A stretch of DNA of 64,000 nt from Bilabrum cf. latius (taxonomy: Eukaryota), in NCBI GenBank assembly GCA_965178125.1, contig OZ237766.1, positions 620,001-684,000 of the forward strand. Reading direction: 5' to 3'. The translations under genes were made by a program, and so were the position numbers. The notes under the pieces were generated by a model. The model saw only the letters and a program-made list of their open reading frames with translations, was not told the origin of the DNA and did not search any database. Positions 7,778 through 62,900 of the stretch are shown here, piece after piece; positions within the stretch are counted from its first letter, which is position 1; each line of letters begins with the position of its first letter.

Positions 7778-10700
7778 TCAGTCCCTAGTCCTCTGTCCCC
7801 TCACTGGCTGTTCCAGAGCAGCCTGCATGCGGGCGAACGCTAGGTATGGCAGCGGCTGGCAATGCACCAGCCTGACGAACTCGGCTGGCTGCAGGCCCCT
7901 CAGCCCTTCCTGCAGATACCTGGGAGTCATTAGAGCCCTGGCCACGCCTGTGGACCCCTGTTGCCGCATCATAGGCAGCAGCAGGGACAGCAGGTACAGG
8001 CAAGTCCTCACTAGTACAGCCAGCCCGCCCACCCCGGGGGCCACCTCACACTCCTCGTCCACGTCCTCGGCAGCGATGGGCGGGGGCAGGAAATCGATCA
8101 GCGCGGCCCAGACCTGGTCATCCTCCTCCCCGTCCTCCTCTTCCTCCTCGTTATCTCCATCGCCGCCCCCGCGCCGACCGCTACCAGCCCCACCGCCCAG
8201 ATCCCAGCCCTGCCGCCCGCCCCGCCCGCCACCGGACCCCCCTTGCCCCTGGCTGCCAGCCGTCATCCACCGCAGCACGCTCCATCCCCCCGTGCTGCCC
8301 CTGCCCGATGCAGAGCCCCCCGCGCCTGCCCTCTGCCTCTCCTTCTCCCTCTCTTTCTCCCGCCGCCTGTCCTCCTCCTCGGCCTGCCCATGCACCGCCC
8401 TCGCTGTCCCAGGCGCACGGGGCTCCAACAGGCCGGCAGCGGCTGCCAGCGGCTGTGGCAAGAGGAACTGGTCCATGAGTGCCGCTGCCAGAGGGGCCGG
8501 CAGGATACCCACGAAGAAGGGGATAAGCCACTTAGGCAGGTACTGCGAGTGCACCTCGGGCACAACGGCCCCCAGCTCACGATCAAGCCTGGCCTCGTGC
8601 TCCTGCTGCCGCCGCAGCTGCCTGTGCAGCACGTCGGGCGCGCCTGCCAGCGGCCCGAAGCGGGGGGACTAGTCCTGTCCCTGTCCCTGTCCCTGTCCCT
8701 GCCCCTGCGATGATGACTCGATTGCGTCGGAGTTCTGAATCGCTTGCTGTTGCTGCTGCTACTGTCGTTGGTCCCCGCTTGGGCTGGCGCCGGTGGACCG
8801 TCCTGCCCCCGGCAGCAGCAGCACACTGCTGGGCGACGAAGACGAGCCCGGGGAAGAGGACAGCTTCTCGCCACTTTGTCCACCACTACCGCGGCCCGCA
8901 CCGCCCTTGCCCATACTTGTCTTGGTCCCCCACCTCTGGCTCGCATCGGGCCCCTCCCTGCCCAGCGCCATCAGCGCAGCCGCGGCGGCGTCCTCAGAGG
9001 GAACAAGGGAGCTCCATCCCAGCGAGCCGTCGTGCGGGCCACCAGTGGATCCCAGGCCGCTCCCGCTCCGCCCTCCTGACCCAAACCCACCTCCACCTCC
9101 ATTACATCCTCCTCCACTGGACTGCCCCTGCCTGCCCTATCCGGTGAGTCTCCAGAGCGCGTGAGGGGCCACCAGCTCGACCGAGTCCTTGCTGCAGAGG
9201 CGCAGGTGCACCTCTGGCAGGGCCTGCCTCACCACCACCCCGAGGTGCTCCGCCAGCATCGCCGTGGTCCTTGCGCCCTGCGCGTGCGGATAGAAAGCGT
9301 ACAGCTCTGGCCTCACGAAGAGCAGGCTATGCGCGCACAGGAAGGCAGTGTAGGGGTCCCTGACACAGGCCAGCAGCAGCCCGCAAATCTGGTTCATGCC
9401 CTAAGTGTACCCATGGTCCGGCCTCGAGGCAGCCAGCGCCAGCATCACATCCCTGAGGGCTGGCCTGAGTGCCCCGCCCACTGCATACAGCTGTGACCTG
9501 CCCATGGTCCTCGATATGTCCTTGATCATGGTCTCGATCTCCTTCTCCTCGCGACCACGTACGTAGGACAGAGCGCCCTGCGAGTCGCCCGCTCGATCCA
9601 CCGGTGGATCCGATCCATCCCCTGAGCCCTGCCCCTGCCCCAGACCTTGCCCCTGCGCCTACCCTTGCCCTTGCCCCACGGACCCGCTCATCTCCCTGCT
9701 CCATGACCTCCCAAGGCCCCCCTAAGGAGAAGACGCCCCCCCCAGCCTGGGGGACATCCCCTGCCCTGCACCCCTGCCCCCCGCCGCGTTGACCTTTCGC
9801 AGCTGTTTGGCCACCCTGCCCCTCGCGTGCCTGCCCCTGGCCAAACACGTGCGGAACAGCGCCGGCGAGACGTGCCCCGCATTGCCCACCGCCAGGGGAT
9901 ACACCACCTCCCTCATCGCGTGGGGGACCCCCCTGTGCCAAGCAGCCAGCGCCCGCCTCGCCCCCGGCCCCACGAGACATTCGGGCCACGCGCCCACCAG
10001 CCGCACCCACTCGGGACACCTGCCCTCCTCCGCGGCTGCTCCCGCCGCCCGCTCGTGCCGGCCCTGGCTCCGCGCCGCTTTGACCAGCTGCTGGGGCGAG
10101 TGCAGGGTCCTGGGCAAAGTGCCCCCGCTGAGGCGCAATGCGTCCACCCCCGGTTTGGCCACCATCTCCCGACCGAGCATGGAGGATCGCCGCATGGCAC
10201 CTTCATCCTCATCTTCATCCTCATCTGCCTCCCCCCGGCTGCCCTTACGGCCTCTGCCCCGGCCCTCCTCACCGGCGCCATCGCCACCCTCCTGTTTGCT
10301 CCTCCCGGTCTCCCCCTCAGTCTCGGACTCTGTGTCGCTGAAACCGTCCTGCCCCCGCTTCTTCTTCTGCTGCCCGTAGCCAAGGGCAAGGGCAAACCCG
10401 CGGCCCACGAGCAGACCAAGCATCCTCCTCTCTACCTCGGACTCGTCTGCGCCTGCATCTGCACGTGCACCATCGCGCGATGCAGGAGCCGATGCGTCGC
10501 CCGACTGTGCCTCCCGCCTCGGCTTCCAGTCTCGGTACCGAGGCACCGCGAGCTGTGACGAGTGCGCCGGGCCAAGCACCGCCGGCTGCTGTCTGTCACT
10601 GGCACTGCTGCTGGCACTGCTTGCTCTGCCTTCCGGGTCACCACCTGCCTCACTCACGGCACGTTGGTTCTCCTTCTCGTGCTGCTCGACGGCTCGAGCC

Positions 10701-13700
10701 AGCGCCAGGGCAAGCCTTCGCTCAGACCACGCGCCACCGTGCAGTGCACCCGTGCAAGCCCTGTGCCCCAGCGCGCCCCACGCCAGCAAGCCGCCGTCAT
10801 CCGTCACCACGCAGCTAGCGTCGTGTTTCGCACATAGCCGTTCAACCCCCAGGGCGGGGTGCAGCGCGCCGCCGATCCCACCTCGGGGACTTGAAGGGTC
10901 GCCCCCCGCCTCGATCTCGTCGATCCCCTCGATCCCTAGCCCCAGCCACCTGAGCTCGTGCGGCCACTGCACTGTCCTGGGCTCGAGAGACACTGTCCCG
11001 GACGAGAGGAGCTCGTCCACACGAGCCATTTCCCTCTCTTCTTCTTCTTTTTCTTCCTTCGCTTTCTCCTCTTCACCCTTCTCTGCCTGCTCCTCCACTC
11101 TCCCTTGTTCCCTGGGGCCGTCCCCCATTGCGGGGGCAGATCGATCTCCCTCGATGGTCGCGGGTGTGCCGCGGCCAGAGGCAGACCCTGTGCCTGTGCC
11201 TGTGCCCGAGGCGGATCCACGGGTGGAGTCGGCCGTAGCAGAAGATCCAGCGGGGGACGGACTGCGGCCATCCGAGCCCTCTCCTGCTCCTGCCCCTGCC
11301 CCTGCCCCTGCTTCCAGCAGCCCCCGTGCCGCCTATTTCTTGCTCCGGATCCTCTCCTCCTCCAGCATCACCTGCCGCTGCAGCCTCCTCACAGTGCTCC
11401 GCTGCACCGCCCCCATCACCAGCCGGGTCCTGGCCCGCCAGTACCGCACTGGGCTGCTCCCGGGGACCCTCGCCCCAAGCTCCACCCCGCGGCCCGACAG
11501 CTGACCCAGGTCATCCAGACCCCAGCCCACCACGCGCCCGTCCGTCGTGCCCACTAGAACGTGGTCAGACCCGCTGGCCAGGGAACACACCATCGCGGGC
11601 TCCCCTCGGGGCCTCCCTGTCCCCACGTCGGGGGATGCAGGGGACGCCAGGGGCACGGGGGTCCCCGCTGGGGACGGGCTGCCCCCGCCCGGTCCAGGGG
11701 AACCCCCCCCGGGGGTGGTCACGGACCCCGTGCCCTGGGACCCAGAGTCGAGCTTTCCCCCGACATCGGCATCGCCCCCGAACCCCACGGGCACGAGGAC
11801 AGGCTTCCACGCGAAAGGAAGGTTCTCCTCCTCTTCGGTAGCGGCCTAGTGCGCCTCTGCGGTGCTCTACTTCTGCTCTCTATCCCCTCCGGCTTGACCC
11901 TCGATCGCTTGTTCTTCGTATTCATCTTCGGACGAAGACGCGGCTTCCACGATCCCACTCGATTCACCCCCCTTCTCATTCTCCTTCTGTTCCCTGGCCA
12001 GCCCGCTGCTGTCAAGGGGCCCCAGCTTCATCCCCAGCTGACCGTACCGGTTGCAACCAAACGCCCACACGTGCCCCTGGGTGGTCAAAAAGGCCGTGTG
12101 CGCCCGCCCCATGGCTACCCGACTCACCCGGATCCCGGCAAGAGGCACCTGCGCCTCCAGCAGCCAGGGCTCGGCCACGCAGCGGCCTAGCGGTCCGGCG
12201 GTGCGGCGGGTTGCGGATGCCGCTGACAGACCGGAGGCTTGGGTGCCCGCGGGGCTGTGTTCCCTGGGGTTGTTCCCCGGGGAACTGCCCTGCTCGATCG
12301 GGGACATCGGACCGGTCCCGTGTTTGGCCACCTTGGGAAGGGCATATTCGGCGGATAGATCCGGCTTGCCCCCCTGCACTGTGTGCCTCCGGGGAGAGAG
12401 ACCCCCTTGTGGGGTCAGCTCCTGGGCGGGGGTGGCGGATGTCCCTGACCCCGGAGAGGGCACGGGCAGCGGGTGAGGGGACTCCCCCTCGCTTGCTCCC
12501 CCCGCAGATCGCTAGGCCCCGTGTGCACGTCCCCCCCGCGTCTTGCCTCGGCCTTGCCCCGACCCGTACCCAGATCCGGAGCCGTACCCCCCCTGCGCCC
12601 CCGATGGCCTCCGTCTGGACCCCGCCCCCATGGACAGCCGCCTGGCACCCTCCGTGGCTGCCCGGGCACGTGCACGGTACTGCAGTGCAGCGCGACGCAG
12701 GGCCTGTGCACGACCCTCTCCCTCCGTGCCGCTGGTTCCGCTATCCCAACCGGCGCCGCGCATGCCGCCCCCGCTCTCCCCACCGCCGCCGCCGCTTTCG
12801 AAACCGGAACCGTGCCTCCCGTGTTCCCCCGCCCCCGGGTCCCCGCCTCCCTGCGCCATGAGCATCACCAGCCCAGACACTGAGGTGGTCAGGGTGGACC
12901 GCCGCCGCCCGGACCCCGCTCTCCTGGCCATTGTGTTCCCCACGGCCCCGCTCATCCTCCGCTCGAAGCTCCCGGAGCCCACCCCGTGCCCTCCCGACCC
13001 GGCGCTCGAGTGGCCGCTACCCGCATCCCCCGCGCCCCTCCTTTGCCTGCCCCCATCCTCGCCGGACCCATCGTCCTCCACCACGTCCGAGGCACCCTCC
13101 CGGGACCGCTCCAGCGCGCTGGGCAGCTCATTCACCACGCCGTGTTCCCTGACCACAGACCCGCGGTGATGCAGCATCTGACCCCCGGCCCCATCCGACG
13201 CCGCGCCCGATCCACCGGTCGGCGAGGGCAGGCCAATCTGGAAGGACCTGGCTCGCCTGCGACCCACCCCCATGCCCATGCCCATGCCCATGCCTCGAGA
13301 CCTAGGCAGTCCCACCCCGCCACCGGCCCCTCCGCGCGATCCGGTCGCAAAGTACCCTGCTGGCCGACCACTCGTCACACTGCCACGCCGCGTGCCATGG
13401 CCCCCACCCGGGGGGGAGGGGTCGGGCGGCGGCACACTGGATCCCCCGGAGCCCTCCCCGTAGGCAGCCGCGGCATCGGCAAGCGCCAGCGCGTCTGTTC
13501 CCTAGAGCGAGCCCAGCCCCGTCCCCTCCGTGTCCTCGGTCCCCTGTGTTCCCTGGGACTCGGCCGTGGATAGCCTCCGTCGGGCCCGGGAGGAGGGCAG
13601 GTCCGCAGACGAGAGCCTCCTCCTGGCGTGCGGGTGCGGGTGCGGCTAGTCGTCCGCACTCGTCACACCATCTCGAGGGACCAGGCCGGGGTCGGGGTGG

Positions 13701-16700
13701 CTGACACCCCACCGGGAGCCCGTTGTTCCCTGCCTCCCTACCTTGCTCTCTCCACCAGCTGCGGGGTCGTGGCCTGCCCTTGCCCCGTCCTGCCACTGCT
13801 GCTGCTGCTGCCCAATCGCATCTGCTGCATCCATGGGCCCGCGGTGGGGGGAACGCATGCTGACGGTGTGACGACGACGGCCCTCGGTCACCAGTCCATC
13901 GCTGCGGGGAGAATCCGCAGACCCCGGTGCCATCCCTCCCGTTGTTCCCTGGCCCCCGTCCAGCCTCCACTCGGCAGGGGGTGAGCCACCCGCCCCTCCC
14001 CCTCCCCCGCTGCCGTGCCGCAAGGGGTGCTGCTGGGGCGTCGTGCCCGCCACCGTCTGTCGCCTCGCCAGAGGGGAGGAGGAGGAGGCCAGCGATCCCG
14101 CTCCATGGGCGTGGGCGTGCCCCTGACCCGCCATGGGCCCCTGTCCCGGGATGACGGGCACCACGGCCCCCGTGACCTGGTGGGACACCCGCCTGGACAA
14201 CGAGAGGGCCATTGAGGTGCCCCCCTGGGACCGGCGGCGAGACCCGGCCATGCTGCCACCCCCACTCGTCACACCGTGGGAGTCCGTCCCGAGCGGGAAG
14301 GCCTGTCCCACCGGCTTCATCTGACCCCCCGTGTGCTGTACCGCCCTTGGCCTCCACTCGTCACGCTCGCTCCCATGGCCCAGCCGGCCCCGCCCCCCGC
14401 ACCCCCAGGTGAAGAGGGTCCCGCTCTGGGTGAAGGCACCCGAGTGCTTGGCCCCCGCCACCACCCCCACCACCTCTCGGTCCGCAAGCGCTCGCACAAC
14501 CCTCGGCGACCTCACGTCCAGCTCGTCACCGTGCCCCAGCCGACCGTGAGACCCCTTGCCGAAGGAAAGCACGCACCCGTCCGCGCATAGCAGCAGGGCG
14601 TGATCGTCCCCGCAGGCCACCCCCAGCACGGCCGCGGCAGCCGTCCACAGGAACCGCTGGGAGGTGGGCGAGGGAACAAGCCGCCAGCCCGCCCTGGCCG
14701 CCTCTGCTCTCAGAAAGGCAAAGGAACCGTCCAGGGCCCGGGAGGGCAACGGGGGCCACTCGCGGGGAGCACCACCATGCAGTGCACCTGTCACCGGCCC
14801 GGCAGGGTCTCCTCCTCGTGGCTGGGGGGCGGCGTGCGCGCCCCACCCCTCGCTCGACTGTTCCCTGCCGCCCCTCCCCTGCTCCCTGTGTTCCCTGGCG
14901 CTCTTCGCTCTCTCCATCCGCCTCCTGCTCGCCTGCATCGCGTCAGCGTGCGAGGCCAAGGGAGACCTGGACAGGGACCCGCCGGAGCCCAAGGAGGACA
15001 CGGAGCCGGGGGCTCGGCTGGGGGCGTGCGGGCGAATCTGAGGGAGGGAATGCTGGGCGTGGGGTGATGTAGCTGATTCGCCGCCGGTGCCCTGACCACT
15101 GCCCGGTGCTGCTGACGACCCCCCTTCCCCCGGGGAAATCCCCCCCCACCATGGGGTCGGCCTGTACTCGAACACGTCCCCCGTGCACGTGACCACCACG
15201 GCGTGTCTTCCACTCGCATCTGCATCGGCCACACCCGCGTGTCTGAGCCACTGCACGGACACGCTGTTCCCCGCCAGGCTGGGTTCCCCCAGCTGCGACC
15301 AACTCACCAACCCGGGGCACTGCCCACCATACCCATTGCCATCGCCACCACTAGCAGACGCAGCAGAAGCAGGCAGCGCCAGCACCCGCACCGGCCTCGT
15401 CTCCGCCGCGGCCTGCATGGCCCGAAGCCGCGCCAGCTCCCGCACATCCGTCTCCTGCCTCGCCCTCTCCCCGTGGGCCTCTGCGCGCCCCGCCGCCAAA
15501 TCGGCAGCATCCTCCAGCTCCGTGTCGGAGGCGGACTCGGAGCCGGAACTGGCCCCGGGGCCGCTGTGTCCAGCCACCACCCCCTACCCCTGCCCCTGCC
15601 CCTGCCCCTGCCCCTGCCCCTGCCGCTGGTGCCTGAGCTCCACTCGGGGGGATCCCACGGCCCCGATGCCCGCCCCTGTCCCCGCCCCCGCCCCCGCCCC
15701 CGCCCCCGCTGCACTCGTCAGCCCGCCTAGCTGCGCCCCGTCCGTCCCAGCACCGGAGCCGATGGGCCCCATGGGCGGGGTCTGCATACCCGAGTGCAGT
15801 GCACCCGTCCCCACCGAGGCAGACCCCACCGCGGGGGCACCCGACGCGGGGAGCGCCACCGCACGGGCACCCGCACCCCCCACGTACCCCTGGGGGTGAC
15901 CCAATGACCCCACATCGGGGTCCCTCAGCCCGCTGGGTGCCTCTGCCAGCATCTCCTCCACGCCCCCCCTCGTGCCCCCGGAAAGAACGCTCGATGCGTC
16001 CCCGGCCCCTTCTGCCCTGGTGCCTCCCCCGATGCCGGACTCGGCCATAGAGTCGCCTTCCTCTAGCACGCTGCCGAGGACAGACCGGGAGGGCCCGCCC
16101 AGCTGGCTTCCGGTGCCCCCACTCGCTGTGCGCATCTCGCTGATGAGCGCCTGCCGACGCGCCTGCCAGGCTTTGTACGCGGCTCGCTCGCGGCGGCGCT
16201 TCTCCCGTCGCTCCATCTTCAACTTGGCTTCTGTTGATAGACTAGGCACGCCTGCAGCTTTCATGGGCTCTTGCTTATCGGAAGCTTTGCTCGATTCTTG
16301 GCTGCTTTGCCTCGAGTGCCGCAACTCTCTTCGAAGGCGACGGACGTCGCCCTTTAGATACTCGATTGCCTCCCGGTACCTGCAACGGCGGAGAAAATGT
16401 ATCAATAGTGTTGCAATTCAGAGGGTATGGCGCGCAACATGGGGGGGAGGGCTAGCCTGAAGACTTCCAGCGATGATGCTTGGATTCGGTATCACATCTA
16501 CCCAAGCTGATCGTAGGAAACGGCGGTTCGACTGTTTGCTCATCTCACTGCCGTTCGAGCTACTTTTTGACCTTCTTGATCTCTCGGTCACGGTCCAGAT
16601 CTTCTCTGGTACCGCTGCGGCCGCTCGCATCCGACTTGCGCCCAGCATCATCGCTCTCAGGCAAGCTGGGGGGCCTGACGCCCCGAGTTCCCCCCCTCCC

Positions 16701-16926: not shown

Positions 16927-19900
16927 TCAATGCGGCGCGCCAACGGCTCCATTTGTATTTGCACCACCCAACCCATCCAGATCGGATCTGGCCAGCACCA
17001 CCGCCCTCACAAGCGGCAGCAGCACTGGCGGCCAGTCCAGGCCGGAGCTTCCGGTCTTCGCGGCGCTGCCGCTACTGCCAGCATCTCCACGCCCCTCGAG
17101 CATCCGCAGCACCACCTTCATCTGTTCCCCAGCCGCCTCCACTGCCTCCCGCTGTGCCACGGTGCCGGTGCCCCACCCCGCACCGGATGCCCCCCCCTCA
17201 TGGTCGCGGCCATCCCCCCGAAGCACCCACGTACTCGTCACACCAACCGCCCCGGCCCCTCCCTGCCCCCACGCCCCCAGCCTCTCCCAACCCCTTCCCG
17301 CCTCCCCCAGCAGCCCATCGCTCAGGGGACCCTCCATCCCACCCATCCCACCGCTCCCAGCTGCACCGGTGGTATTGCCAGCTGCTTCCCCTCTTCCCCT
17401 TCCGTCACCACCCTCTCCCCGCCGGCCCCTCCCAGACTGGGCCATGGATCCCCCGGGTCTCTCAGGACCCGCCCAATCCGCAAGGGCTCGGAGCCCTGCA
17501 CGCGCCTCCCCGGATGTACCACCGTGCAGTGCACCTGACCCCTCCCACAGCCTCACCAGCTGCGAGGCCAGCTCGGTCGCATCGCCGCCGTGCCCCGCCC
17601 CTCCATCACTCGTCACACCTTTGGCCCGCACGGCACCCAATACCACTCGAACGTCGCGCAAGACTGCAGTGAGCCAGGACTCACTCGTCACATTGCGACC
17701 CCCGCACGTCCGTTCGCACGCCATGCATCCCGCCACTGCCAGCACTGCTCCAAGCAGCACCTCCACCTGATCCCACTCGTCACACTCTCCCAGCGCCCTC
17801 ACGAGAGCACCCGACACCAGCTCCACGTCCTTGTCAAGCCACTGACCCCCAGCACCTGTATAGTCTTCATCTCTACCAGAGTGCCCCCGCCCCACACCCT
17901 ACCCGTCCCCACTGAACAGCCCCTCCCTCACCCCTTGCCCCCACTCCCTCCCCGCCTCCATCGCCACTCGCCCCGCCCACCCGCACACAGCCCTCCGCCC
18001 CGCCCGAGCCCCCTCCCTGGCCGCACCCCCTGTTCCCCGCAGTCCCAGCGCACCAGCAAGATCACTCATCACACGGCGGGGAAGCCCAGGGTCCGCTCGA
18101 CTCCGCCGCGGCATGGATCTCACCCATTCACCAGCACGCCTCGCCCAGCGCCACGCAGATCCGCGGGACAAGGCGCCGTCGTGCAGTGCACCCTGACTGC
18201 CACCCATGCCAGCATGACCCGTGGCTGACGCGGCGACCCGCCGCAGCCTCCTCATGACCCGCCGGCTCGCCAGGCCCATCGCTCCCCGCCTGCCACCGGC
18301 GCCCAAGCACCCGCTCAATGCGCCGGCCGCAGCCTGCAGCGCCCCACCGCACTCGTCACACCCTCCACCCACCCCGGCAGGCGCCCTCACCAGCGCCTCC
18401 TCCACCGCCGCGACCGCCTCCGCCTCCTGCGAGGGAACAAGCCCCCTCACTCCACCGGTGGACCGCCCCCCGCCAGCCACCGCCTCCGCCGCCAGCCCCA
18501 CACCATCCGCCCACCCATCTACACCCACGCACCCGTCCACAGCCGCCTCAAGCACCCCCTGGGCCTCCCGAGTGAGCGCGCCTAGGGCCAGGCACGCGCC
18601 CTCGCTGCTGCGCATGGCACCCAGGACCGCACCACCGTGCGATGCACCCTACCCGGCACCCCCCACCTCCAGGGCCTCGACGGCGGCCTGCAGCGCACCC
18701 AGCACGGTCTCGCCCGATGCCAGCTCCAGCGGCGGGCCGGGGTCCCCTAGCTCCTCACTCGTCACACCTCTGGCAGCTTGGCCTGTCCATGGCACATCCT
18801 CCTGCTCCTAGTCAATATCCCCACCCTCGACCTCCTCGTGGCTCTGCTCTTCTTCTTCCTGATCCATTGCGCTGCCCCCCCCTGCACGGCCGATCCCCGC
18901 CCGCATCCCCCCGGAGCCTGAGTCTGAATCCGATTCCGAGTCGGGGCCCGAATCAGACTCCGAGTCGGACAGCCAGCCCCCATTCCCAGGCTCACCACCA
19001 CCGCCACCGCTGCGGCCCACCCCTTGTTCCCTGGCCAGGGCACACACCGCCCCCATGGCCCCCGCCGCCTCCGTCGCAGCAACCCGCCCGATCGAAGCCC
19101 AGGCCTCGGAGAGGAGGGCCAGCCCCAGCAGCCGACCCGCCGCGCTGCAGGGCAATGCACCCAGCACCTGCCTCCGCAACCTCTCACTCGTCACACGGGC
19201 GGACACGAGCAGCTAAGCCGCCCGCACGCACCTCGCCACGGCCGCCCGCCCGTCCCCCCCACCCTCCCTGGCGAGTCGCAACAGGCCAAGCCCCAGCCGA
19301 GCCGCCGACACCGACCGCGTCAACGGGTCAGCCGCCGCCCGCTTGCCCCCGCCCTTGCCCCCGCGCGAGCCCCCGCCGGCCCACAGCAGCGCACCCGCCC
19401 CGTCCACGGGTCCCGGCAGTGGAGGCCGATGCACGTGCGAGTGGGCGGCTACAACCGCCAGCCTTGCCGCCGCCCCGAGCCCGAGGAGTGCGTGACCCCC
19501 GTCCAGGGCGACGGGCCAGGGAACAACCTAGGGAACAGAGTGTTGATGACCAGATCCCCTCAGCTGGGGGCAGCCGCAGCCCCCACCCACTGCATCGCGG
19601 AGCACTGCCTCGGCTGCACCTGGCCCGGCCGGACCCGCTGACGTCACAGCGCGAGTCACCGCGGCCCGCAACTCCGCGGCAAGGGCCGCCCCGGCCCAGC
19701 CCTCCACGCTCACGGGCGCCCCGCCAGGCGAATTGAACCCCGTCACCCCATCCTGCTCGTCGCACCCCTCCTCTGCCCGTGCGGCGAGCAGACGGTCCAG
19801 CTGCCTGCACGCCAGCCCGAGCCCATGCCCGCCCGCACTCGTCACACCTCCGCTCCCCAGCCACCGGTCCTCCGCCCACTGCAGCAGCAGCCCCAGGCGG

Positions 19901-20571
19901 GAGGGACGGGCCAGCGGGCCCGCACTCGTCACACCGTCTACACTCGTCACGACGCTGGACATGCCTCGCACGAGGCCGCAGCAGGGTGCCGCCAGGAGCG
20001 CGCCCACCGTGCGGCCCAGCACCACTCGCCCGCCGCCGCCCCCCTCACTCGTCACACCAGCTGCACCCCGCCTGCAGTCGTCCAGCGATAGACCGGCGGC
20101 CTCTGCCCGGAGCAGCACTGCAGCATGGCCCGCCTCGCGCTCGCCTATACGAAGACGGCCAGTTGAGCTTGCTTCCTCCGCTGTGGGGTGGCCGGGAAGC
20201 TGTGGCGGTGCCAGCCGCGAGCTGCTGCTCATTCCACGCATACTTTGCATTCCCTGAGAGAACGACAGGAGGGCGGATGCCGCTGCCTTGGTGGCCTGCT
20301 GCACGGATGGATGGGCCAGCACTTGCTTCACGGCTGCGTCGTGGGCCGCTGCAACCACCGACAGCAGCTCGGGAGCAGCTGCCGGGGCGCTGTACGCTAT
20401 GAAACCTGCGGCGTGAAATTCACCGCATGATGCCCACGCTGATTCCAGTTCGAATGTGGGCCGATCCGACGCGACGGTCCAGCTGCGCAATGCTGATGAT
20501 AGCGCACGCAAGGAAGCAGCGGCCGGAGTGGGCTTGCCCCCAGACGCTTTAGACATTGTGGTGTTAGGCAT
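16927..20571 (-). CDS. large Ala/Gly-rich hypothetical protein (~1,210 aa or longer; start uncertain)
   Basis: ORFs 19528..20571, 19213..19434, 18808..19206, 17899..18615 and 16927..17895 share one frame and are joined by TAG codons. TGA stop at 16929-16927. The frame stays open upstream through TAG 20574-20572 to ATGs at 20763 and 20880. No domain recognised. Confidence 0.7.
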
Positions 20572-20878
20572 CTATGACTCCAGCCTATCCGCAGTGTAGG
20601 GCTTGGACACACCTGCTGCAGACTTGGCTGCTGGTCGTGCTGTGGGATCAACAGCTGCTATCGCGCTCTTTAGATGTATATCTGTCTCCACGCCGCTGCT
20701 ATCGTTAGATTCTACATTACGCTCTGGATTAAGAGGGGTTAGAACCCAAGAAACTGGATCCATACCGGCCAGGGCTGAGCCGAATGACACGCTGGGTTTG
20801 CTCGAGATGCACTCGTCATCGTGCCAGACCAGTTCGCGAACGGACTGGAACCATTCTTGGCCCTTTGCAGGTGAATCC

Positions 20879-21749
20879 ATGGGGTCCCTATTTTCAATGT
20901 TTGGCGGATCGACCGAAAAAGCAAAGGTTCTTGTTGTTGGGCTTGATAATAGCGGCAAGACAACAATATTGAATCGTTTGAAGCCAGATGGCGTGAGTGC
21001 AACAGGCGCATGCGATGCTTTATTCCCTTCTCGGTGTGGATTCTATATGCATCTGGCGTCGGGTAGTTACATATTCCTTATGGCACAGACTGTTACGGAT
21101 GAGGTAACACCTACGGTGGGGTTCACGGTGGAACAATTCAAGGTTGATAATTTGCAGTTCGAGGCGTTCGATATGGGCGGCGCCCAGCGCTTCCGAACAA
21201 TGTGGGAGAGCCGATACGCGGACGTAGACTGTGTAATATTTGTTGTAGATAGTGCCGATAAGCTCCGGCTTGTCGTGGCGAAGGTGAGACTGCCGTGCCG
21301 TGTCCGCTGCGTGTCGCCTTGGCGAATCCACCCGTCGGGGCGCTCGCCGCCTTGCGTGTGGTATCATGAATCTCAGTCCTGCTGCTCGCTTGACGCTCAT
21401 GTACACCCTACAATCCATTGACCCCCCGCAGGACGAGTTCGACGGCATGCTCGAGAACGACTCGATCAAGGCCCGCCCCGTGCCCGTGCCTGTCCTGGTG
21501 TTCGCCAACAAGATGGACGTGAAGGACGCCATGGACCACGTGGAGGTCTCCGAGGGCCTGGGCCTTGCTGAGCTGAGCGACCGCCCCTGGCACATTGAGG
21601 CCAGCAACGCCCTCTCGGGGGAGGGTCTGGACGAGGGGGTCAAGTGGCTGGGGGCGCAGGTGACCAAGCAGAAGGAGGAAGCCAAGGGAGGAGGAGGGGC
21701 GGGTGCCGCGAAAGGGGGGGCGGGGGCGGGGGCGGGTGCGGGGCGATGA
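20879..21749 (+). CDS. ARL6: ARF-like small GTPase ARL6/BBS3; 3 exons (20879-20992, 21089-21283, 21432-21749), 208 aa
   Basis: MG start; GLDNSGKTTILNRLKP, PTVGF, FDMGG, IFVVDSADKLRLVVAK|DE, FANKMD, WHIEASNALSGEGLDEGVKWL match the ARL6 pattern. Two GTGAG...CAG phase-0 introns; TGA stop. Confidence 0.88.
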
Positions 21750-21908
21750 CACGGCATGCCATGCCATGATTTCGAGATCACAGCGGACCTTGATTGCATA
21801 TTTGGTTGCAGCGAGAGATTGGATCAAATGGATGGGAGAGTCACTGAACGCAAGCACAAGCACAGGCTACACGCATACATTTGATGTCACATCCCCACAT
21901 TGCACTCG

Positions 21909-27711: not shown

Positions 27712-27864
27712 TCCACTGCTGGTAGGCCTGTTTTTGCGGAGGATGCTAACTAGTCCTTTTGCTGCGAGTAGGCAGGCAGGCAGGCAAACCGATGCACATG
27801 CTGTACCCAATTTTCCACGCACTGGTCTAGGTATAAACTCACATGTATTCACTCGTCACACGTA

Positions 27865-47956: not shown

Positions 47957-48232
47957 GGTTCTGGTGACGATTCCAGACGAACCCACTTGCGACCAGGTAC
48001 GATGAAGCGACCGCCACTAGGCCTTGTGGGCCGCACAGCAGAATCTTGTCACTTTCAGGGTTCGATTGAAGCCTCCAGGAGTCGGCAGTCATCATGATGG
48101 TAACGGTATGCCTTCTTGGCCTACTCGCGTGTTGCCTAGCCAATGGCGCAGCAAAGCAAGCCCCCTCCGCCGAAACAGGCACGACCTGCTGTTTGGACCT
48201 AGACCGGCGCTACCATGCCCATGACACACTCG

Positions 48233-49591: not shown

Positions 49592-49868
49592 GGTTCTGGT
49601 GACGATTCCAGACGAACCCACTTGCGACCAGGTACGATGAAGCGACCGCCACTAGGCCTTGTGGGCCGCACAGCAGAATCTTGTCACTTTCAGGGTTCGA
49701 TTGAAGCCTCCAGGAGTCGGAAGTCATCATGATGGTAACGGGATGCCTTCTTGGCCTACTCGCAAGTTGCCTAGGCAGTGGCGCAGCAAGGCAAGCAGCC
49801 CTCCGCCGAAAAAGGCACGACCAGCTGTTTGGACCTAGACCGGCGCTACCACGCCCATGACACACTCG

Positions 49869-51227
49869 TCACACCTCTGGAAGATCCTCGCACAGCATCA
49901 GAGGATCCTCACGGATCTCCCCCAGCACACCCAACGCATCCCCCACAGCCACCTCCCAGCAGCCCCTCCCGCCGCCATCCCGCCGCTTCAGGTACCAGTC
50001 CGCATCCCGCACGCCGTGCGCCAGTGCCAGCACGCACTCCCCATGGCCTCCAGAACATGCAGCTGTCAGCGCGTTCCAGCCCGCCCCATCCACGGATTCG
50101 TGCCCGCCAGCCAGCCTGCCCAGCCTCAGCCGCTTGCCCAGCTCCATGGGCCTGCCCTCGCTGGCCATCTGCATCACCATGCCCGCGTCCCTGTGCGCGT
50201 CATGGGCGTGTCTCCAGTGCAGCATGTGTCTCATCCTGCGCCTGAACGGGTTGTAGTACTGCACGCCCCTGAGCTCACGCGGGTCCGAATCCCGGAAGAG
50301 CGCATCGAGCAGCTTGGGCGGGTCATAGCCGTGCTTTCGGATCGCCTCAATCAGAACAGCCACGGATGATAGGGGTCTGTAGTGTCGTCTTGCCATCATT
50401 TTCTGCACCCACTGCAATGTAGATATCATGTAGTCTGTTGGGCACAGTCCCTCCTCTCGCTGCAACCCAGAGTGGAGGATGGCAGCCATCTGCAGAGGAG
50501 TACCGTATACATTCCAATGCTCGGGCCATGCCCGAAGGGAAGCGCTCAATGCTGTAACGATCAAGCTTCCATCCATGAAACCATCCTGCGATGGCAGATC
50601 AACTCATGACAACACAGTATAGCTGTCTTCGCGCCACACAAACCCATTCATTTCGACCGGCGCCGCGACTCGTACACTACAGAGCCAAGCTTACGTGGAC
50701 ATGGAGACGATATTTCCTCTTCATGAACAGATGCAGCTCAAGGGTTCGCAAAAGGTACCGGCTGCGCATGGTGTGGTTCGAGTACGCATTGCTGCTTTCA
50801 TCAGACCTTTCGGCCTTGCAGTCAGTGGTTGAATCTCCATCCGCTCGGGCCTGGACGTTTGCCTGGTACCTCTTAGATTCTACGAGGTGCTACGAATTCA
50901 AGGCGAGCTCGTGCATGGCTTTCGGACAGGTGTTGCCGAGACGGTACTGGATCAGCTCCCTGTCGACATACTCCCGATTCTGCGGCAAAGCTCCTGATTT
51001 TGTACGTCATGAAATTGTAGTCTATGCCACTGCACTGGATAGAATCCCACATGTAAACTCACAGTGTCCGCCACAATCAGGCGTGAAATAGGTCGTGAGC
51101 AAACTGCAACTGCGTCGGAGCATGCTTCCAGACGTAGTCTAGTGCAGTCTCGACCGCTGGATCGAAGCAGAGCCTGCACAGTAGTATACAGTATCTCCTG
51201 GTCGGTCCTATCTGACGAGTAATCCAT
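49869..51227 (-). CDS. ankyrin-like repeat protein, array copy 6 (most divergent; MDGSLIVTALS)
   Basis: Same structure as copy 1, with several private substitutions. Confidence 0.7.
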
Positions 51228-51504
51228 GGTTCTGGTGACGATTCCAGACGAACCCACTTGCGACCAGGTACGATGAAGCGACCGCCACTAGGCCTTGTGG
51301 GCCGCACAGCAGAATCTTGTCATTTTCAGGGTTCGATTGAAGCCTCCAGGAGTCGGCAGTCATCATGATGGTAACGGTATGCCTTCTTGGCCTACTCGCA
51401 AGTTGCCTAGGCAGTGGCGCAGCAAGGCAAGCAGCCCTCCGCCGAAACAGGCACGACCAGCTGTTTGGACCTAGACCGGCGCTACCATGCCCATGACACA
51501 CTCA

Positions 51505-52863
51505 TCACGCCTCTGGCAGGTCCTCGCACAGCATCAGAGGATCCTCACGGATCTCCCCCAGCACACCCAACGCATCCCCCACAGCCACCTCCCAGCAGCC
51601 CCTCCCGCCGCCATCCCGCCGCTTCAGGTACCAGTCCGCATCCCGCACGCCGTGCGCCAGTGCCAGCACGCACTCCCCATGGCCTCCAGCACACGCAGCT
51701 GTCAGCGCGTTCCAGCCCGCCCCATCCACTGCCTCGTGCCCCCCCGCCAGCCTGCCCAGCCTCAGCCGCTTGCCCAGCTCCATGGGCCTGCCCTCGCTGG
51801 CCATCTGCATCACCAAGCCCGCGTCCCTGTGCGCATCATGGGCGTGTCTCCAGTGCAGCATGTGTCTCATCCTGCGCCTGAACGGGTTGTAGTACTGCAC
51901 GCCCCTGAGCTCTCGCGGGTCCGAATCCCGGAAGAGCGCCTCGAGCAGCCTGGGCGGGTCATAGCCGTGCTTTCGGATCGCCTCAATCAGAACCGCCACG
52001 GATGATAAGGGTCTGTAGTGTCTTCTTGCCATCATTTCCTGCACCCACTGCAATGTACTTATCATGAACTCTGTTGGGCACAGTCCCTCCTCTCGCTTCA
52101 ACCCAGAGTGGAGGATGGCAGCCATCTGCAGAGGAGTACCGTATACATTCCAATGCTCGGGCCATGCCCGTAGGGAAGCGCGAATTGCTATTGAGATCAA
52201 ACGCGAATCTATGAAACCATCCTGCGATGGCAGATCAATTCATGACGACACAGTATAGCTGTCTTCGCGCCACACAAATCCATCAATTTCGACTGGCGGC
52301 GCGCCTCGTACACTACAGAGCCAAGCTTACATGGACATGGAGACGATATTTCCTCTTCATGAACAGATGCAGCTCTAGGGTTCGCAAAAGATACCGGCTG
52401 CGCATAGTGTGGTTCGAGTACGCATTGCTGCGTTCATCAGACCTTTCGGCCTTGCAGTCAGTGGTTGCATCTCCATCCGCTCGAGCCTGGACGTTTGCCT
52501 GGTGCTTCCTAGATTCTACGAGGTGCTACGAATTCAAGGCGAGCTCGTGCATGGCTTTCGGACAGGTGTTGCCGAGACGGTACTGGATCAGCTCCCTGTC
52601 GACATACTCCCGATTCTGCGGCAGAGCTCCTGATTTTGTACGTCATCAAATTGTATCCTATGCCACTGCACTGGATAGAATCCCACATGTAAACTCACAG
52701 TGTCCGCCACAATCAGGCGTGAAATAGGTCGTGAGCAAACTGCAACTGCGTCGGAGCATGCTTCCAGACGTAGTCTAGCGCAGTCTCGACCGCTTGATCG
52801 AAGCAGTGCATGCACAGTAGTATACAGTATCTCCTGGTCGGTCCTATCTGACGAGTAATCCAT
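51505..52863 (-). CDS. ankyrin-like repeat protein, array copy 7 (variant IDSRLISIAIR)
   Basis: Same structure; exon-3 translation identical to copy 4. Confidence 0.7.
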
Positions 52864-53139
52864 GGTTCTGGTGACGATTCCAGACGAACCCACTTGCGAC
52901 CAGGTACGATGAAGCGACCGCCACTAGGCCTTGTGGGCCGCACAGCAGAATCTAGTCACTTTCAGGGTTCGATTGAAGCCTCCAGGAGTCGGCAGTCATC
53001 ATGATGGTAACGGTATGCCTTCTTGGCCTACTCGCGTGTTGCCTAGCCAATGGCGCAGCAAAGCAAGCCCCCTCCGCCGAAACAGGCACGACCTGCTGTT
53101 TGGACCTAGACCGGCGCTACCATGCCCATGACACACTCG

Positions 53140-54510
53140 TCACGCCTCTGGCAGGTCCTCGCACAGCATCAGAGGATCCTCTCGGATCTCCCCCAGCACA
53201 CCCAACGCATCCCCCACAGCCACCTCCCAGCAGCCCCTCCCGCCGCCATCCCGCCGCTTCAGGTACCAGTCCGCATCCCGCACGCCGTGCGCCAGTGCCA
53301 GCACGCACTCACCATGGCCTCCAGCACATGCAGCTGTCAGCGCGTTCCAGCCCGCCCCATCCACGGATTCGTGCCCCCCAGCCAGCCTGCCCAGCCTCAG
53401 CCGCTTGCCCAGCTCCATGGGCCTGCCCTCGCTGGCCATCTGCATCACCAAGCCCGCGTCCCTGTGCGCGTCATGGGCGTGTCTCCAGTGCAGCATGTGT
53501 CTCATCCTGCGCCTGAACGGGTTGTAGTACTGCACGCCCCTGAGCTCACGCGGGTCCGAATCCCGGAAGAGCGCCTCGAGCAGCTTGGGCGGATCATAGC
53601 CGTGCTTTCGGGTCGCCTCAATCAGAACCGCCACGGATGATAGGGGTCTGTAGTGTTCTCTTGCCATCAATTCCTGCACCCACTGCAATGTACTTATCAT
53701 GTAGTCTGTTGGGCACAGTCCCTCCTCTCGCTTCAACCCAGAGTGGAGGATGGCAGCCATCTGCAGAGGAGTACCGTATACATTCCAATGCTCGGGCCAT
53801 GCCCGTAAGGAAGCGCTCAATGATGTAACGATCAAGCTCCCATCCATGAAACCATCCTGCGATCACAGATCAACTCATGACAACACAGTATAGCCGTCTT
53901 CGCGCCACACAAATCCATCAATTTCGACTGGCGGCGCGCCTCGTACACTACAAAGCCAAGCTTACGTGGACATGGAGACGATATTTCCTCTTCATGAATA
54001 GATACAGCTCAAGGGTTCGCAAAAGATACCGGCTGCGCATAGTGTGGTTCGAGTACGCATTGTTGCGTTCATCGGACCTTTCGGCCTTGCAGTCAGTGGT
54101 TGTATCTCCATCCGCTCGAGCCTGGACGTTTGCCTGGTGCTTCCTAGATTCTACGAGGTGCTACGAATTCAAGGCGAGCTCGTGCATGGCCTTCGGACAG
54201 GTGTTGCCGAGACGGTACTGGATCAGCTCCCTGTCGACATACTCCCTATTCTGCGGCAGAGCTCCTGATTTTGTACGTCATCAACTGTGTGTGACAGTTG
54301 TAGTCTATGCCACTGCACTAGATAGAATCCTACAGGTAAACTCACAGTGTCCGCCACAATCAGGCGTGAAATAGGTCGTGAGCAAACTGCAACTGCGTCG
54401 GAGCATGCTTCCAGACGTAGTCTAGTGCAGTCTCGACCGCTTGATCGAAGCAGAGCCTAGACAGTAGTATACAGTATCTCCTGGTCGGTCCTATCTGACG
54501 AGTAATCCAT
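53140..54510 (-). CDS. ankyrin-like repeat protein, array copy 8 (variant MDGSLIVTSLS; codon 18 = TAG)
   Basis: Same structure; closest to copy 3. Confidence 0.7.
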
Positions 54511-59957: not shown

Positions 59958-62900
59958 TCATTCCTGCTTGAACTTCTCCATGGCCTCCTCGGCATCCATG
60001 AACACGGCCAGTCCACCCCTACCGCCCTTGCTCTTGGCCCCTCCATCCCCGTCCCCCTCGCTCATCGCAGCCGCCAGCGCGAACTCAATCCCGTCCTCAT
60101 CCTCGTCCCCTTCATTCTCGCCAGCATCATCCCCACCAGCCCCTGCCCCCGCCCCTCCCCCGAGATCCACTCCCATGGCCCTCGCCAGCGCCTCGTCCTC
60201 CTCCGAATCGAAATCGTCTTCCCCGTCCTCGGCCCCAGCACCGCCGCCGCTCTCCAGCAGCAACTCCTGCGCCAGCCTGTCCGCAAAGGCCTCTTCATCT
60301 TCGCTCTCGTCCCCGCCGTCACCCTCCCGCGCCTCTGCCCCCGCCCCCGCATCCCGCTGCGCCGCCAGACCGCCATACCTCCGGAGGAACGCCTCCTCGC
60401 CCTCCAGGAAAGCGCCGCTGTTCCCCCGGCGCAGGGCGCCCGGCTGGGTCACGCTCGAACCGCGCACCTTGGCCCCCTGGTGACCCGCGATCAGCTGATC
60501 CACCGCCCGGCTGCCCTTGCCCTGCGCCTCCCTGTACGCAGCCGCGACGAGCGCCTCCTCGCCCAGCTCCCCGCCATCGTGCAGTGCACCCATACCATCC
60601 GCGCCGCCGCCCGCCTGCATCCCGGCACCACGCACTCCCGTGGCCGCCTCTTTCTTTGGGTTCCGCCGGACCATCTTATCCAGGAAGGAGACCAACGAGA
60701 AATCGGCCAGCGGGTCGCCTGCGTACTGAGACCCGGCCCCGGGCCTGTCAAGTAGCTCCAGGGCGAAGTGCCTCACCGATGGGTGGTAGTGCTGGGCCAG
60801 GGAACACAACTCCCAGAGACAAGTCATCTCTGCCCCTGCGAACAGTGGGTCGCCCTTCAACGGGTCGTATTCTGCCTGCTGGGGCTGCTGCTGCTGCTGC
60901 TGCTGGGGCTGGGAGGGCTTGGCTCTGGCGGGCGCACTCGCCTCTGCTGCCCCCTGCTTGTCACCGCTGTCGCTGTCGCTACTGGAATCGGATCCGGAGT
61001 CGGATCCGGAGCCGGATCCGGAGTCTGAGCTGGACTCGGAATCGCTCCCGCTCCCCACCACTGCATCAGCGATCGCGAGAGCCTTAGCCTTCTCTTGTTC
61101 CCTCGATTGTTTCTCGTCCTCCTCATCCTTACCTGATGTTGCCATGAAGCCGGCAGCCGCCGCGGCAGCTCCCCCTCGCACCACAACTTCTTCCTCCTCC
61201 TCCTCCTCCTCTTCACCTGCTCCGTCCTGCATGTTTCCACTGCCGTCAGCATCACCATCGGCGCCGTCATCCGCCATGGGCACGGGACCGGAAGGGGCGG
61301 CGGCCGCGGCATCTGTACCAGATTCGGCAGATGCGCCCTCACTCGTCACACCGTCCTCAGAGACAGCAGCCCCGGCCCCCTGCGCCTGCGTGATGCCAGC
61401 GGCCAGCGCCGGCTTGGTTGCAACCGCCTTGGACACGAGGAACACGCAGGCGGCGGCCAGCGGTGCGGGCGCCCCGAGGGCCACCTGAAGCACCCGCTTG
61501 AGGAAGGCCCTCGCGCGATTCGGCTCCGGATCCGTGACCACCACCCGGAAGACGAGTGTGAGTAGCATGGCGTGCTTGCTGGATCTCTCGGGCATCGAGT
61601 CGGGCCTCAGTTTGGTGTAGAGGGCGGCGTACACCCGCCGGGGGGCATCCCCCCCGTCCCCGTCCTCGCCCTCTCCTCCCTCACTCGTCACACCAGTCTT
61701 GCGCTCGGCCCCCACGCCCGCCCTGACGAGTGCGAAGAGCAGGTGCAGCGCCGACACCGCCGTGCCCAGGGGTGCCTCCTTGCTCAACGAGATGAGCCGT
61801 TCCATGCGCCGCCCCAGGTCCTCGAGCGCGACGGGGGCCTCGAAGGGGGCACCGCCGTGCAGTGCACCCGGACCAGCCCCGGCACCAGCGGGCGCCTGGG
61901 CCTAAACCTCCCCCCTCAACAGGGGCAGCGCGAAGGGGAGCGCACGGTTGATGCCCGAAAGCAGGGTCTGCACCAGTTTGACCACCGGCCCCTCCTGCTG
62001 GTCCTGACCCAACGATCCGAGCAATCGGGCGGGCCGAGCCCCGGCCTTGCCCCTGGCCCCCGGCGCGTTGCGGCCGAACCGACTCCTCTGCTTGCGCTTG
62101 CCGCCGCTCGCGTGACCACCGGCGCCGCGCGACCTGCCGTGCCTGCCTCCTTCCCCATCGCCCCCCTCTCGCTCTCCCTCTTGCTCGCTGGCATCCTCAT
62201 CCTCATCCTCATCACCATCATCACCGGCATTCTGCTGCTTGCTCCCCGCACCGCCAGCCGTCCACCGCTTGCCCCCCGCACCCGCCCCCCCTCGCGCTGC
62301 ACCACCGTCCACGCCACCGCCCTCGCTTGTTCCCTCGGGCCCCAGCACGTCATCGAACAGCTGGAGGTATGCCCCCACCAGCTGTGCCGCCAGCGAGGGC
62401 TCCGATCTCCTCAGTGGCACCTGAGACAGGAAAGCAACGGCGTAGTATCGCGCCCTCACGCGGCGCACCGCCAGACTCTCCTGTGGTCTGCCGCCACTGC
62501 CGCCCCCGCGCCCCCCACCTCTACCCCTGCCCCTACCCCTACCTCTTCCCCTTCCTCTCCCCCTTCCTCTGCCCCCCGCTTCTCTCCTCCTCTCCATCTC
62601 CTCCGCCACCATCCTCCCCTCATTGGCAGCCAGCCGAGCCAGCACCTGCCTCGTCTCCCTCACCACCACGGCGGCCATGGCCGGGTGCTTCTCCAGGAGC
62701 CTCAAGAGGTGCTGCACCGCCCTCGAGGCGACCTTCCTGTCCTGGTCTCCGAGCCGATCCGCGAGCAGGGCCAGCAGGGGAGCCTCCCCCTCCGGTCTCT
62801 CCAGGATTAGGTCCAGAGCGGCCGACATGGCCCGCTCCCGGGCCCACGCCAAGGGGTCCTTGGACGCCGACTGGAGGGAGTCGATGAGGGCGGCGAACCT

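Follow-up and report, generated by a model that had tools for sequence, protein, structure and literature searches.

What could cause one short nucleotide sequence to be written out, letter for letter, again and again through a series of unrelated genes? The question is raised by a 64,000-nucleotide stretch of DNA from Bilabrum cf. latius (contig OZ237766.1 of assembly GCA_965178125.1, positions 620,001 to 684,000 of the forward strand; the whole stretch is called the window hereafter and is numbered from its first letter), in which the 10-mer GTGACGAGTG (the word) is present in 36 exact copies, both strands taken together, whereas 100 dinucleotide shuffles of the window gave a mean of 0.12 copies and never more than 1.

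An exact word recurs across the window

Thirty of the copies are scattered between 10.5 and 61.7 kb, and six lie inside a tandem array with a 1.64-kb unit. A preliminary description of this DNA, made from the letters by eye, had put the copies outside the array at about 25-30 and far above chance, which holds; all the positions that it gave are occupied, three of them at slightly different coordinates (37534, 37930 and 38413 are really 37536, 37932 and 38414), but its list omitted the copies at 29351 (+) and 34210 (+) and those of the array. Aligning the copies and counting the array (41.6-53.1 kb) once leaves 31 independent places. Sites with one mismatch to GTGACGAGTG number 15 more, against about 4 expected, and with so few of them the word is sharply defined. 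At the 31 places, T stands at position -1 in 28, G at -2 in 24, G at -3 in 19, and G two bases past the 10-mer in 21, whereas beyond -3 to +11 the information content drops from 2 bits to 0.56 bits or less. Because the flanking positions carry so little information, the full unit is approximately GGTGTGACGAGTG, 13 bases with sharp edges and no common flanks, and outside arrays no other 9- to 13-mer in the window is more frequent. The density is about one copy per 2 kb, with companion words (described below) in addition. Two exact spacings of 92 nucleotides (nt) occur but involve unrelated sequence.

Two trivial explanations can be set aside. The preliminary description had itself considered that the copies might be fragments of one repeat family or that their enrichment might vanish against a codon or dicodon null, and neither is the case. 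A sensitive self-BLAST of the gene space yielded 44 high-scoring segment pairs, of which 3 (21-48 nt) have the word on both sides; given the sharp edges and the lack of homology in the flanks, the copies are not pieces of a dispersed repeat or transposon. Codon-aware nulls were run inside 34,953 nt of open reading frames (ORFs), where GTGACGAGTG occurs 23 times, as compared with means of 0.80 (maximum 4) after synonymous shuffling, 0.06 (maximum 1) after shuffling codon order, and 3.3 (maximum 10) under a dicodon chain, that is, a first-order codon Markov model trained on the same ORFs. The 12-mer GTGTGACGAGTG has 20 copies, where the dicodon chain gives 0.30. The enrichment persists under all three nulls and is therefore not an artefact of codon usage or of the encoded peptides.

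Genetic code and gene architecture

To place the copies with respect to genes requires the genetic code, and here the organism reads TAG as glutamine and uses TGA as its only stop. The kinesin-2 motor at 24606..25742 (-) contains in-frame TAG codons at 25598, 25514, and 25430; under NCBI table 6 its translation can be aligned over the whole length with human KIF3B (E = 1e-148), and the three TAGs fall on conserved glutamines of KIF3B (..LSQVG.., ..NSTQREVY.., and ..FAYGQTG..). A DUF829 match (profile positions 1-97) likewise spans a TAG. TAA is apparently also a glutamine codon, as the continuity of the ORFs, the sole evidence in its case, suggests, so that the pattern is that of a variant nuclear code of the table 6 type (TAG/TAA = Gln). 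The ORFs of the window carry 50 in-frame TAG/TAA per 11,412 codons, TAG making up 8% of glutamine codons, and a tRNA scan found no suppressor tRNA in the window. The preliminary description had missed that TAG is a sense codon, which alters what counts as inside a gene. Read in this way, the genes of the window are giant, intron-poor ORFs, with low-GC islands between rather than within them. The ORFs and the introns are as follows.

7778..16417, minus strand: TGA-free ORF of 2879 codons, with RCC1 blades at amino acids (aa) 597-696, 1431-1460, and 1609-1641, RabGAP-TBC at 2289-2409, and 13 in-frame TAG
16927..21363, minus strand: TGA-free ORF of 1478 codons, no Pfam match, 10 copies of the word
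21909-25847, minus strand: ORF of 1312 codons, kinesin-2
29436-34328, minus strand: ORF of 1630 codons
Start ATG at 34268, plus strand: ORF of 673 codons, ATIC
36552-38417, plus strand: ORF of 621 codons, DUF829/TMEM53-like
38519-41344, minus strand: ORF of 941 codons
Minus strand: ORF of more than 1346 codons, Mak21 homologue
21282-21429, plus strand: intron of 148 nt, GTGAGA...CAG, GC below that of the exons, in an ARF-like gene that overlaps the upstream end of ORF 16927-21363
28925-29081, minus strand: intron of 157 nt, GTGAGA...CAG, GC below that of the exons

The RCC1 propeller of the 2879-codon ORF is broken by a 735-aa low-complexity stretch across which the frame is kept. Among the proteins compared, a close relative was found for ATIC only, at 96% identity; the best named relatives of ATIC are stramenopile proteins at about 60%. 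A 347-aa stretch with four copies of the word had no protein match, and the Mak21 stretch had only distant ones (at most 42% identity).

The architecture bears on one reading of the word, namely that it is the 5' splice site of a special class of introns or introners and that the GC-rich "inserts" are introns. The word does begin with GTGA, as do the two verified introns (GTGAGA), and copies stand at the start of stretches that are absent from homologues. Against this, the ORFs stay free of TGA for 1478-2879 codons, with no change of frame across the copies, whereas 372 TGAs occur in the two other frames; the real introns, both of about 150 nt, are lower in GC and devoid of the word. Evidence on splicing came from Logan contigs of three runs, 15 of whose 108 joints were examined together with a small part of the contig pieces; the RNA nature of these runs is a guess, and one of them is flagged as probably DNA, yet all three hold both spliced joints, which the DNA run lacks. 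Among these 15 joints, spliced contigs back no introns in the 13-33 kb region other than the two listed, none of the joints is at a copy of the word, and X5 contigs bridge five copies unspliced. A splice-site role is scarcely credible on this evidence and was rejected, since the ORFs run on through the copies and the verified introns lie elsewhere.

Strand, frame, and position within genes

The copies of the word, in window coordinates, are as follows; sense and antisense are relative to the host gene or the gene just downstream.

10555..10564, plus strand: antisense within ORF 7778-16417 (-)
13369..13378, minus strand: sense, V-T-S (GSVTSGRPA), in the 735-aa stretch between RCC1 blades
13657..13666, minus strand: sense, V-T-S (DGVTSADDQ), bridged by X5 record 8
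14263..14272, minus strand: sense, V-T-S (HGVTSGGGS), bridged by X5 record 8
14355..14364, minus strand: 10-mer without the preceding GT, frame R-D-E-W, in an RCC1 repeat
17607..17616, minus strand: sense, V-T-S, ORF 16927-21363
17682..17691, minus strand: sense, V-T-S, same ORF
17774..17783, minus strand: sense, frame C-D-E-W, same ORF
18350..18359, minus strand: sense, frame C-D-E-C, same ORF
18756..18765, minus strand: sense, V-T-S, same ORF
19185..19194, minus strand: sense, V-T-S, same ORF
19836..19845, minus strand: sense, V-T-S, same ORF
19923..19932, minus strand: sense, V-T-S, next copy 18 nt away (local duplication of 6 codons)
19941..19950, minus strand: sense, V-T-S, ORF 16927-21363
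20046..20055, minus strand: sense, V-T-S, same ORF
21903..21912, minus strand: its TGA is the stop of the 1312-codon kinesin-2 ORF and is followed by a lower-GC 3' region
27850..27859, minus strand: sense, 6 codons ahead of the TGA of ORF 27839-29392 (frame of this gene uncertain)
29351..29360, plus strand: antisense to both adjoining genes, in a low-GC spacer
29753..29762, minus strand: sense, V-T-S, ORF 29436-34328, bridged by X5 record 13
30440..30449, minus strand: sense, V-T-S, one-mismatch copy 18 nt upstream (30458), bridged by X5 record 13
32360..32369, minus strand: sense, V-T-S
32461..32470, plus strand: antisense within ORF 29436-34328
32927..32936, minus strand: sense, V-T-S
34210..34219, plus strand: 10-mer in a low-GC leader, directly behind an A/T run, 58 nt ahead of the ATIC start codon
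37536..37545, plus strand: sense, V-T-S, between matched DUF829 blocks
37932..37941, plus strand: sense, V-T-S, between matched DUF829 blocks
38414..38423, plus strand: its TGA is the stop of the 621-codon DUF829/TMEM53-like ORF
40561..40570, plus strand: antisense within ORF 38519-41344 (-)
41662..53143, minus strand: six array copies (41662, 43309, 44944, 48227, 49863, and 53134), each the TGA stop of an array gene of 240-244 codons
46592 and 51499, minus strand: array units with GTGATGAGTG instead of the exact word
61340..61349, minus strand: sense, V-T-S, 192-aa linker of the Mak21 homologue (45 aa in yeast)
61682..61691, minus strand: sense, V-T-S, 97-aa loop of the Mak21 homologue (45 aa in yeast)

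At 27 of the 31 independent places the word is in sense orientation (binomial p = 3e-5), which upholds the sense bias first noticed by eye; the preliminary description had rightly given 10555, 32461, and 40561 as exceptions but overlooked a fourth, 29351. Within the block of plus-strand genes at 34-38.4 kb, the orientation of the word switches with the genes, and since the bias is kept there, orientation follows transcription.

The word is not frame-independent, as had been thought. Twenty of the 23 internal sense copies are read as GTG-ACG-AGT (V-T-S), usually preceded by G and followed by E, A, G, or D, and three as C-D-E or R-D-E, a split that departs from even use of the two stop-free frames (p = 5e-4). 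In the third frame the TGA within the word terminates the kinesin-2 ORF, the DUF829/TMEM53-like ORF, and every intact array gene, all three of which had been recognized at the outset. More generally, the word lies within 20 nt of the stop in 4 of 11 gene ends (0.27 expected, p = 2e-4). In-frame TAG codons are found 6 codons (kinesin) and 18 codons (DUF829) upstream of the terminal word, an arrangement that would fit former stops now read through to the next TGA.

Inside genes, the copies tend to occupy material that homologues lack. Both copies of the Mak21 homologue fall in its loop and linker, both internal copies of the DUF829 gene fall in a stretch that exceeds the profile by about 190 aa, and three copies of the 2879-codon ORF fall in the 735-aa stretch that separates the RCC1 blades. 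The sole copy within a conserved repeat is that at 14355, which may be an ordinary coding match. The conserved cores (ATIC, the kinesin motor, and the ARF-like gene) have no copies and, as already reported for ATIC and the transposon, neither the ATIC ORF nor the low-GC repeats contain an exact copy, one-mismatch matches being there at chance level. Two further ideas on position were pursued. A hidden-stop ("ambush") role was rejected, because, of the 179 TGAs in the +1 frame of the ORFs, about 20 to 23 come from the word, which is not their main source. No significant link to in-frame TAG/TAA was found, with 5 of 25 copies within 15 codons of one against about 3.2 expected.

Companion words and a second organism

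The word is one of at least four (among them CCAGGGAACA and GGTGCAYYGCAYGGTGGTGC); the others, likewise sense-biased, were found by a k-mer scan against codon shuffles. The second word is CCAGGGAACA (for example at 13943..13951, minus strand), whose core CAGGGAACA occurs 20 times in sense and 4 times in antisense in the ORFs of the window. It is used in all three frames (11, 8, and 1 copies in the window; 40, 36, and 25 in the second organism described below), none of which gives a stop or a cysteine. Counted as AGGGAACA between 11106 and 63168, it has 25 copies on the minus and 9 on the plus strand, again in three reading frames. The third word, GGTGCACTGCACGGTGG.. (for example at 17515..17535, minus strand), reads G-A-L-H-G-G, and its sister GGTGCATCGCAYGGTGGTGC reads G-A-S-H-G-G; these words of 20-21 nt are found in unrelated genes of the minus strand at 10749, 14787, 15804, 17534, 18191, 18647, 30647, 31762, 39759, 40062, 40356, 60589, and 61867. 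Companion words also occupy inserts, two of them lying in Mak21 loops.

A scan of metagenome contigs with a 20-base G-A-(S/L)-H pattern returned at least 119 stretches (L001-L119), where a handful would be expected by chance from a rough estimate of the size of the collection. Among the stretches listed, 81 came from three metagenomes (contig prefixes Ga0136560, Ga0307982, and Ga0306871) and represent one organism, since overlapping contigs are 99-100% identical. This second organism has 58% GC, as compared with 65-70% in the genes of the window, TGA-free ORFs of up to 2343 codons, and TAG as 19% of its glutamine codons; the shared words, the use of TAG, and the gene architecture suggest that the two organisms are related. 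Its contigs were selected by the companion word and not by GTGACGAGTG, which nevertheless occurs 30 times in 353 kb of non-redundant sequence (same-composition controls, 0-2), with CAGGGAACA occurring 127 times (controls, 1-5). By comparison, 38 unrelated stretches totalling 222 kb contain 0 and 4 copies, respectively. The word has the same flanking GGT and the same sharp edges as in the window, no preferred spacing was seen in the second organism, and the copies in low-GC contexts are those of L071, L073, and L032. A comparison that needs no gene calls pairs the 12-mer with the nearest G-A-S-H word: the two share a strand in 13 of the 15 pairs separated by up to 3 kb, and in 10 of 11 when the distance is limited to 1 kb. 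The G-A-L-H word, on the other hand, differs concertedly: the second organism spells it GCA-TTG-CAY 25 times out of 26, whereas the 4 window matches to the same pattern all have GCA-CTG-CAY, and both of the changes between the organisms are T-to-C, synonymous, and toward the higher GC of the window. Such changes would be tolerable by G:U pairing with a guide RNA, and they do not decide between selection, a guide, and a template process.

Several side observations concern the metagenome material. The 11-mer GGCGCCGCGCA, which would read G-A-A-H, has 46 copies on both strands of the 353 kb, and hexamer arrays of GAAGAT and GGAATC are common in loci L001-L119. Five of 32 copies of the word stand within 60 nt of a contig start (0.4 expected; L008, L017, L035, L119, and L112, a duplicate of L008), as do 0 of 131 copies of the second word. 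A link with chromosome breakage or telomeres was rejected, as these contig ends have no telomere-like repeats or common sequence; assembly breaks in low-complexity tails just ahead of a gene-end copy are more likely. The companion-word pattern had no match in viral contigs; a 15-base pattern of the word itself drew at least 120 viral loci with at least 125 copies of the 10-mer in 1.1 Mb, more than one copy being present in 5 loci, which is background.

Nucleotides rather than peptide

With one frame shared by 20 of 23 internal copies, it could be argued that the conserved entity is a peptide, G-V-T-S-(E/A/G), that functions in disordered regions and has acquired identical codons as a side effect, and the related companion peptides G-A-S-H-G-G and G-A-L-H-G-G would fit such an explanation. 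A short linear peptide motif, however, should keep the peptide and let the codons vary. Instead, 21 of 27 V-T-S in the ORFs of the window are written with the same nine bases, GTGACGAGT, where codon usage predicts about 2%, and 13 of 14 G-V-T-S are spelled with identical codons, even the rare AGT (10% of serine) and GGT (19% of glycine). In the second organism the same bases encode 13 of 32 V-T-S and 8 of 12 G-V-T-S despite near-even codon usage. Copies also appear as C-D-E, as a stop, in a leader, and in antisense, the second word uses three frames, and the one-mismatch variants do not cluster at the third positions of codons, so we regard a peptide motif as improbable. The original proposal of a nucleotide-level signal overlaid on coding DNA is supported by the identical bases behind V-T-S, the leader, other-frame, and stop uses, the recurrence in a second organism, and the scarcity of near-exact copies.

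Decay, selection, and insertional origin

Steady neutral decay would produce about as many one-mismatch as exact copies. Over core positions 2-10, the window holds 6 one-mismatch copies against 31 exact ones, and six control words of the same composition have 1-5 one-mismatch copies over all ten positions. The second organism has 30 one-mismatch copies (controls, about 20) against 30 exact ones, and two-mismatch counts are within the control range in both organisms. Given this scarcity, the simplest reading is purifying selection on the letters of the word in both organisms.

The sharp edges and the absence of flank homology are also what would be expected of templated insertions or scars without function (12 and 21 nt, both divisible by three) that a mobile element or a repair process left behind in the sense direction and that are tolerated only where the peptide is harmless. 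The lengths of about 12 and 21 nt agree with such an origin, as do the placement of copies in inserts by which conserved proteins are extended and the concerted change between TTG and CTG in the G-A-L-H word; the frame pattern could be random phase followed by selection, the second word, free of stops and cysteines, using all three frames. Few decayed copies in two organisms of differing base composition would, however, require very recent bursts in both, and no full-length element stands beside any copy. Among 8 indels in 4 pairs of near-identical contigs, a small sample, no word-sized presence/absence allele was found, and a mechanism that inserts a fixed 12-mer is not known. On balance, we consider a purely insertional origin decidedly doubtful.

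Reading on DNA or on the transcript

Is the word then read as double-stranded DNA or on the RNA? A protein might bind the double-stranded word as a core-promoter or initiator-like element, a chromatin organiser, or a recombination/repair signal, its directional action setting the orientation. Both orientations do occur, in 4 of 31 places of the window and for 14 of 33 9-mers in the long ORFs of the second organism; one copy (29351) is in an intergenic spacer; and copies in low-GC leaders stand 58 nt (ATIC) and 96 nt (L073) ahead of the first ATG that opens a long ORF. In L071 an ATG lies, by eye, about 56 nt past the word and opens no ORF of 150 codons or more, and two of these three copies have A/T runs 14-37 nt upstream. 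As for a core promoter, the 120 nt upstream are below 50% GC at five distinct copies (2 of 31 in the window and 3 of 30 in the second organism). Most copies, on the contrary, are deep in GC-rich coding sequence, distant from gene starts; the word is not palindromic; and the 12-mer is strongly co-oriented with the coding strand (27 of 31 in the window, 13 of 15 in the second organism). The antisense minority, together with the weak 9-mer bias of the second organism, therefore leaves room for a DNA-level reader, which we think unlikely but by no means negligible.

The reading that we favour, tentatively and at somewhat less than even confidence, is that of a cis-acting word read on the transcript. 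In this model, GGTGTGACGAGTG would be kept by selection on the transcribed strand in 5' leaders, in the low-complexity inserts of giant ORFs, and at gene ends, and its reader would be a sequence-specific factor acting on RNA, an RNA-binding protein with a long footprint or else a guide RNA complementary to the word, serving the export, stability, translation, or marking of long intron-poor messages. The length and exactness of the word (12-13 nt, and 20-21 nt for a companion word) its presence outside coding sequence, ahead of ATIC, and its place in a small vocabulary common to both organisms would be in keeping with such a reader. With TGA as the sole stop, the word would be tolerated in coding sequence in two frames only, of which the benign G-V-T-S dominates, whereas the third frame ends the protein and would be tolerated at the C terminus, as in three genes here; the frame pattern and the three stop uses would then be by-products of the sole-stop TGA code. 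The antisense reading is free of stops in all frames, so that tolerance would favour antisense; as sense dominates, the orientation must stem from the mechanism, which points to the transcript. We infer from these patterns both selection on the word and its reading as RNA rather than DNA, and every functional statement made here is to be taken in the same sense.

Several observations weigh against this interpretation. No tRNA or Rfam match that could be a trans-acting factor or guide was found in the window, no RNA gene is recognisable by eye at the four antisense copies, and those four places are themselves unexpected. Transcription through the internal copies depends on the Logan contigs and shares the guess about their RNA nature. 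Two of the eight array units share a C-to-T change in the word, so that the letters are not strictly kept in every copy, and the concerted difference of the G-A-L-H word likewise points away from purifying selection. In the second organism, selection of contigs by the companion word over-samples word-rich genes, and the short 9-mer is weakly biased, whether judged by long ORFs (19 sense and 14 antisense) or by co-orientation within 3 kb (21 versus 12). Finally, comparison of the window with the 119 metagenome loci by blastn and tblastx gave 0 matches, none of these contigs being orthologous to the window.

A more speculative version, to which we give a small chance, is that the words form a genome-wide "vocabulary" of letter-perfect sense-strand sequences kept uniform by a nucleic-acid template, either guide RNAs or template-driven conversion. 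Guide RNAs would license or mark the organism's own long intron-poor messages, and conversion would rewrite near-matches into the exact word; uniformity kept in this way would explain both the few decayed copies and the concerted TTG-to-CTG difference. We know of no description of either template system for eukaryotic nuclear genes.

Relation to known systems

The transcript-level word that we favour can be compared with several known elements. HIP1 of cyanobacteria, Chi, KOPS, and DNA uptake sequences are likewise exact words of 8-13 bases that exceed chance, lie in coding sequence, are strand-biased, and are common to related genomes. The analogy with HIP1, Chi, and uptake sequences drawn in the preliminary description therefore holds as a statistical resemblance, but not beyond it: those bacterial words follow replication or DNA uptake, whereas the orientation of the present word follows transcription, gene by gene, even in a 4-kb stretch on the opposite strand. 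The present word is, moreover, eukaryotic and nuclear, non-palindromic, accompanied by companion words, and contains the only stop codon.

Another comparison is with CAR-E, a 10-nt element for cytoplasmic accumulation found in human mRNAs whose genes naturally lack introns, which is also a short sense element present several times per message in intron-poor coding regions; CAR-E has a loose consensus, whereas the present word is letter-perfect over 12-13 bases. Plant-type small-RNA targets are sense sites of 12-21 nt, conserved at the nucleotide level across species and encoding tolerated peptides in their frames, but they usually number one per member of a single family, while the present word has many sites in unrelated genes, and Rfam and tRNA scans found no complementary small RNA or hairpin locus in the window. 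Insertions derived from introners or miniature inverted-repeat transposable elements in GC-rich algae resemble the word in being sense-biased and in genes of GC-rich protists; they differ in that the word has no shared sequence beyond it, no terminal repeats, and, among the 15 joints examined, no splicing at its copies. In the literature, the word, its complement, and the companion words matched only primers and unrelated sequences, and searches by keyword found nothing pertinent, although the phenomenon could be described under other words.

Other features of the window

The tandem array (41400-54500, minus strand) consists of eight units of about 1.64 kb, each with an ORF of 240-244 codons and a weak ankyrin match below threshold; the two that have the C-to-T change are separated by a distance of three units, which suggests that three units make up a higher-order repeat. 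Exact copies of the 15-mer CATGATTGAACCATC lie at 38480-38494 (+) and 59918-59932 (-), one in the 3' region of the DUF829 gene and the other in that of the Mak21 gene; both are in sense, and the 15-mer may be a 3'-end signal. A low-GC element (about 41%) is present in two copies (3643-5435 and 55989-57622), which lack the word and whose translations are identical over much of their length; Pfam gave no match to its ORFs in the frames tried. Tandem repeats with units of 51, 69, and 84 nt lie inside an open frame at the left end of the window (1-1218), and a gap of 200 N is at 3428-3627.

Implications

From a practical point of view, gene callers that use the standard code would break every gene here at TAG, and the words serve as markers, a 20-base pattern having drawn at least 81 contigs of the relative from 241 million metagenome records. 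If the word is a selected signal, exact nucleotide words can form a dense second layer within eukaryotic coding sequence, and their placement would be set by protein tolerance and by a single-stop code. These genomes would then offer a tractable case of how overlapping codes coexist, how intron-poor giant genes are recognised or handled, and how the reassignment of stop codons reshapes the range of sequences that genes can contain.

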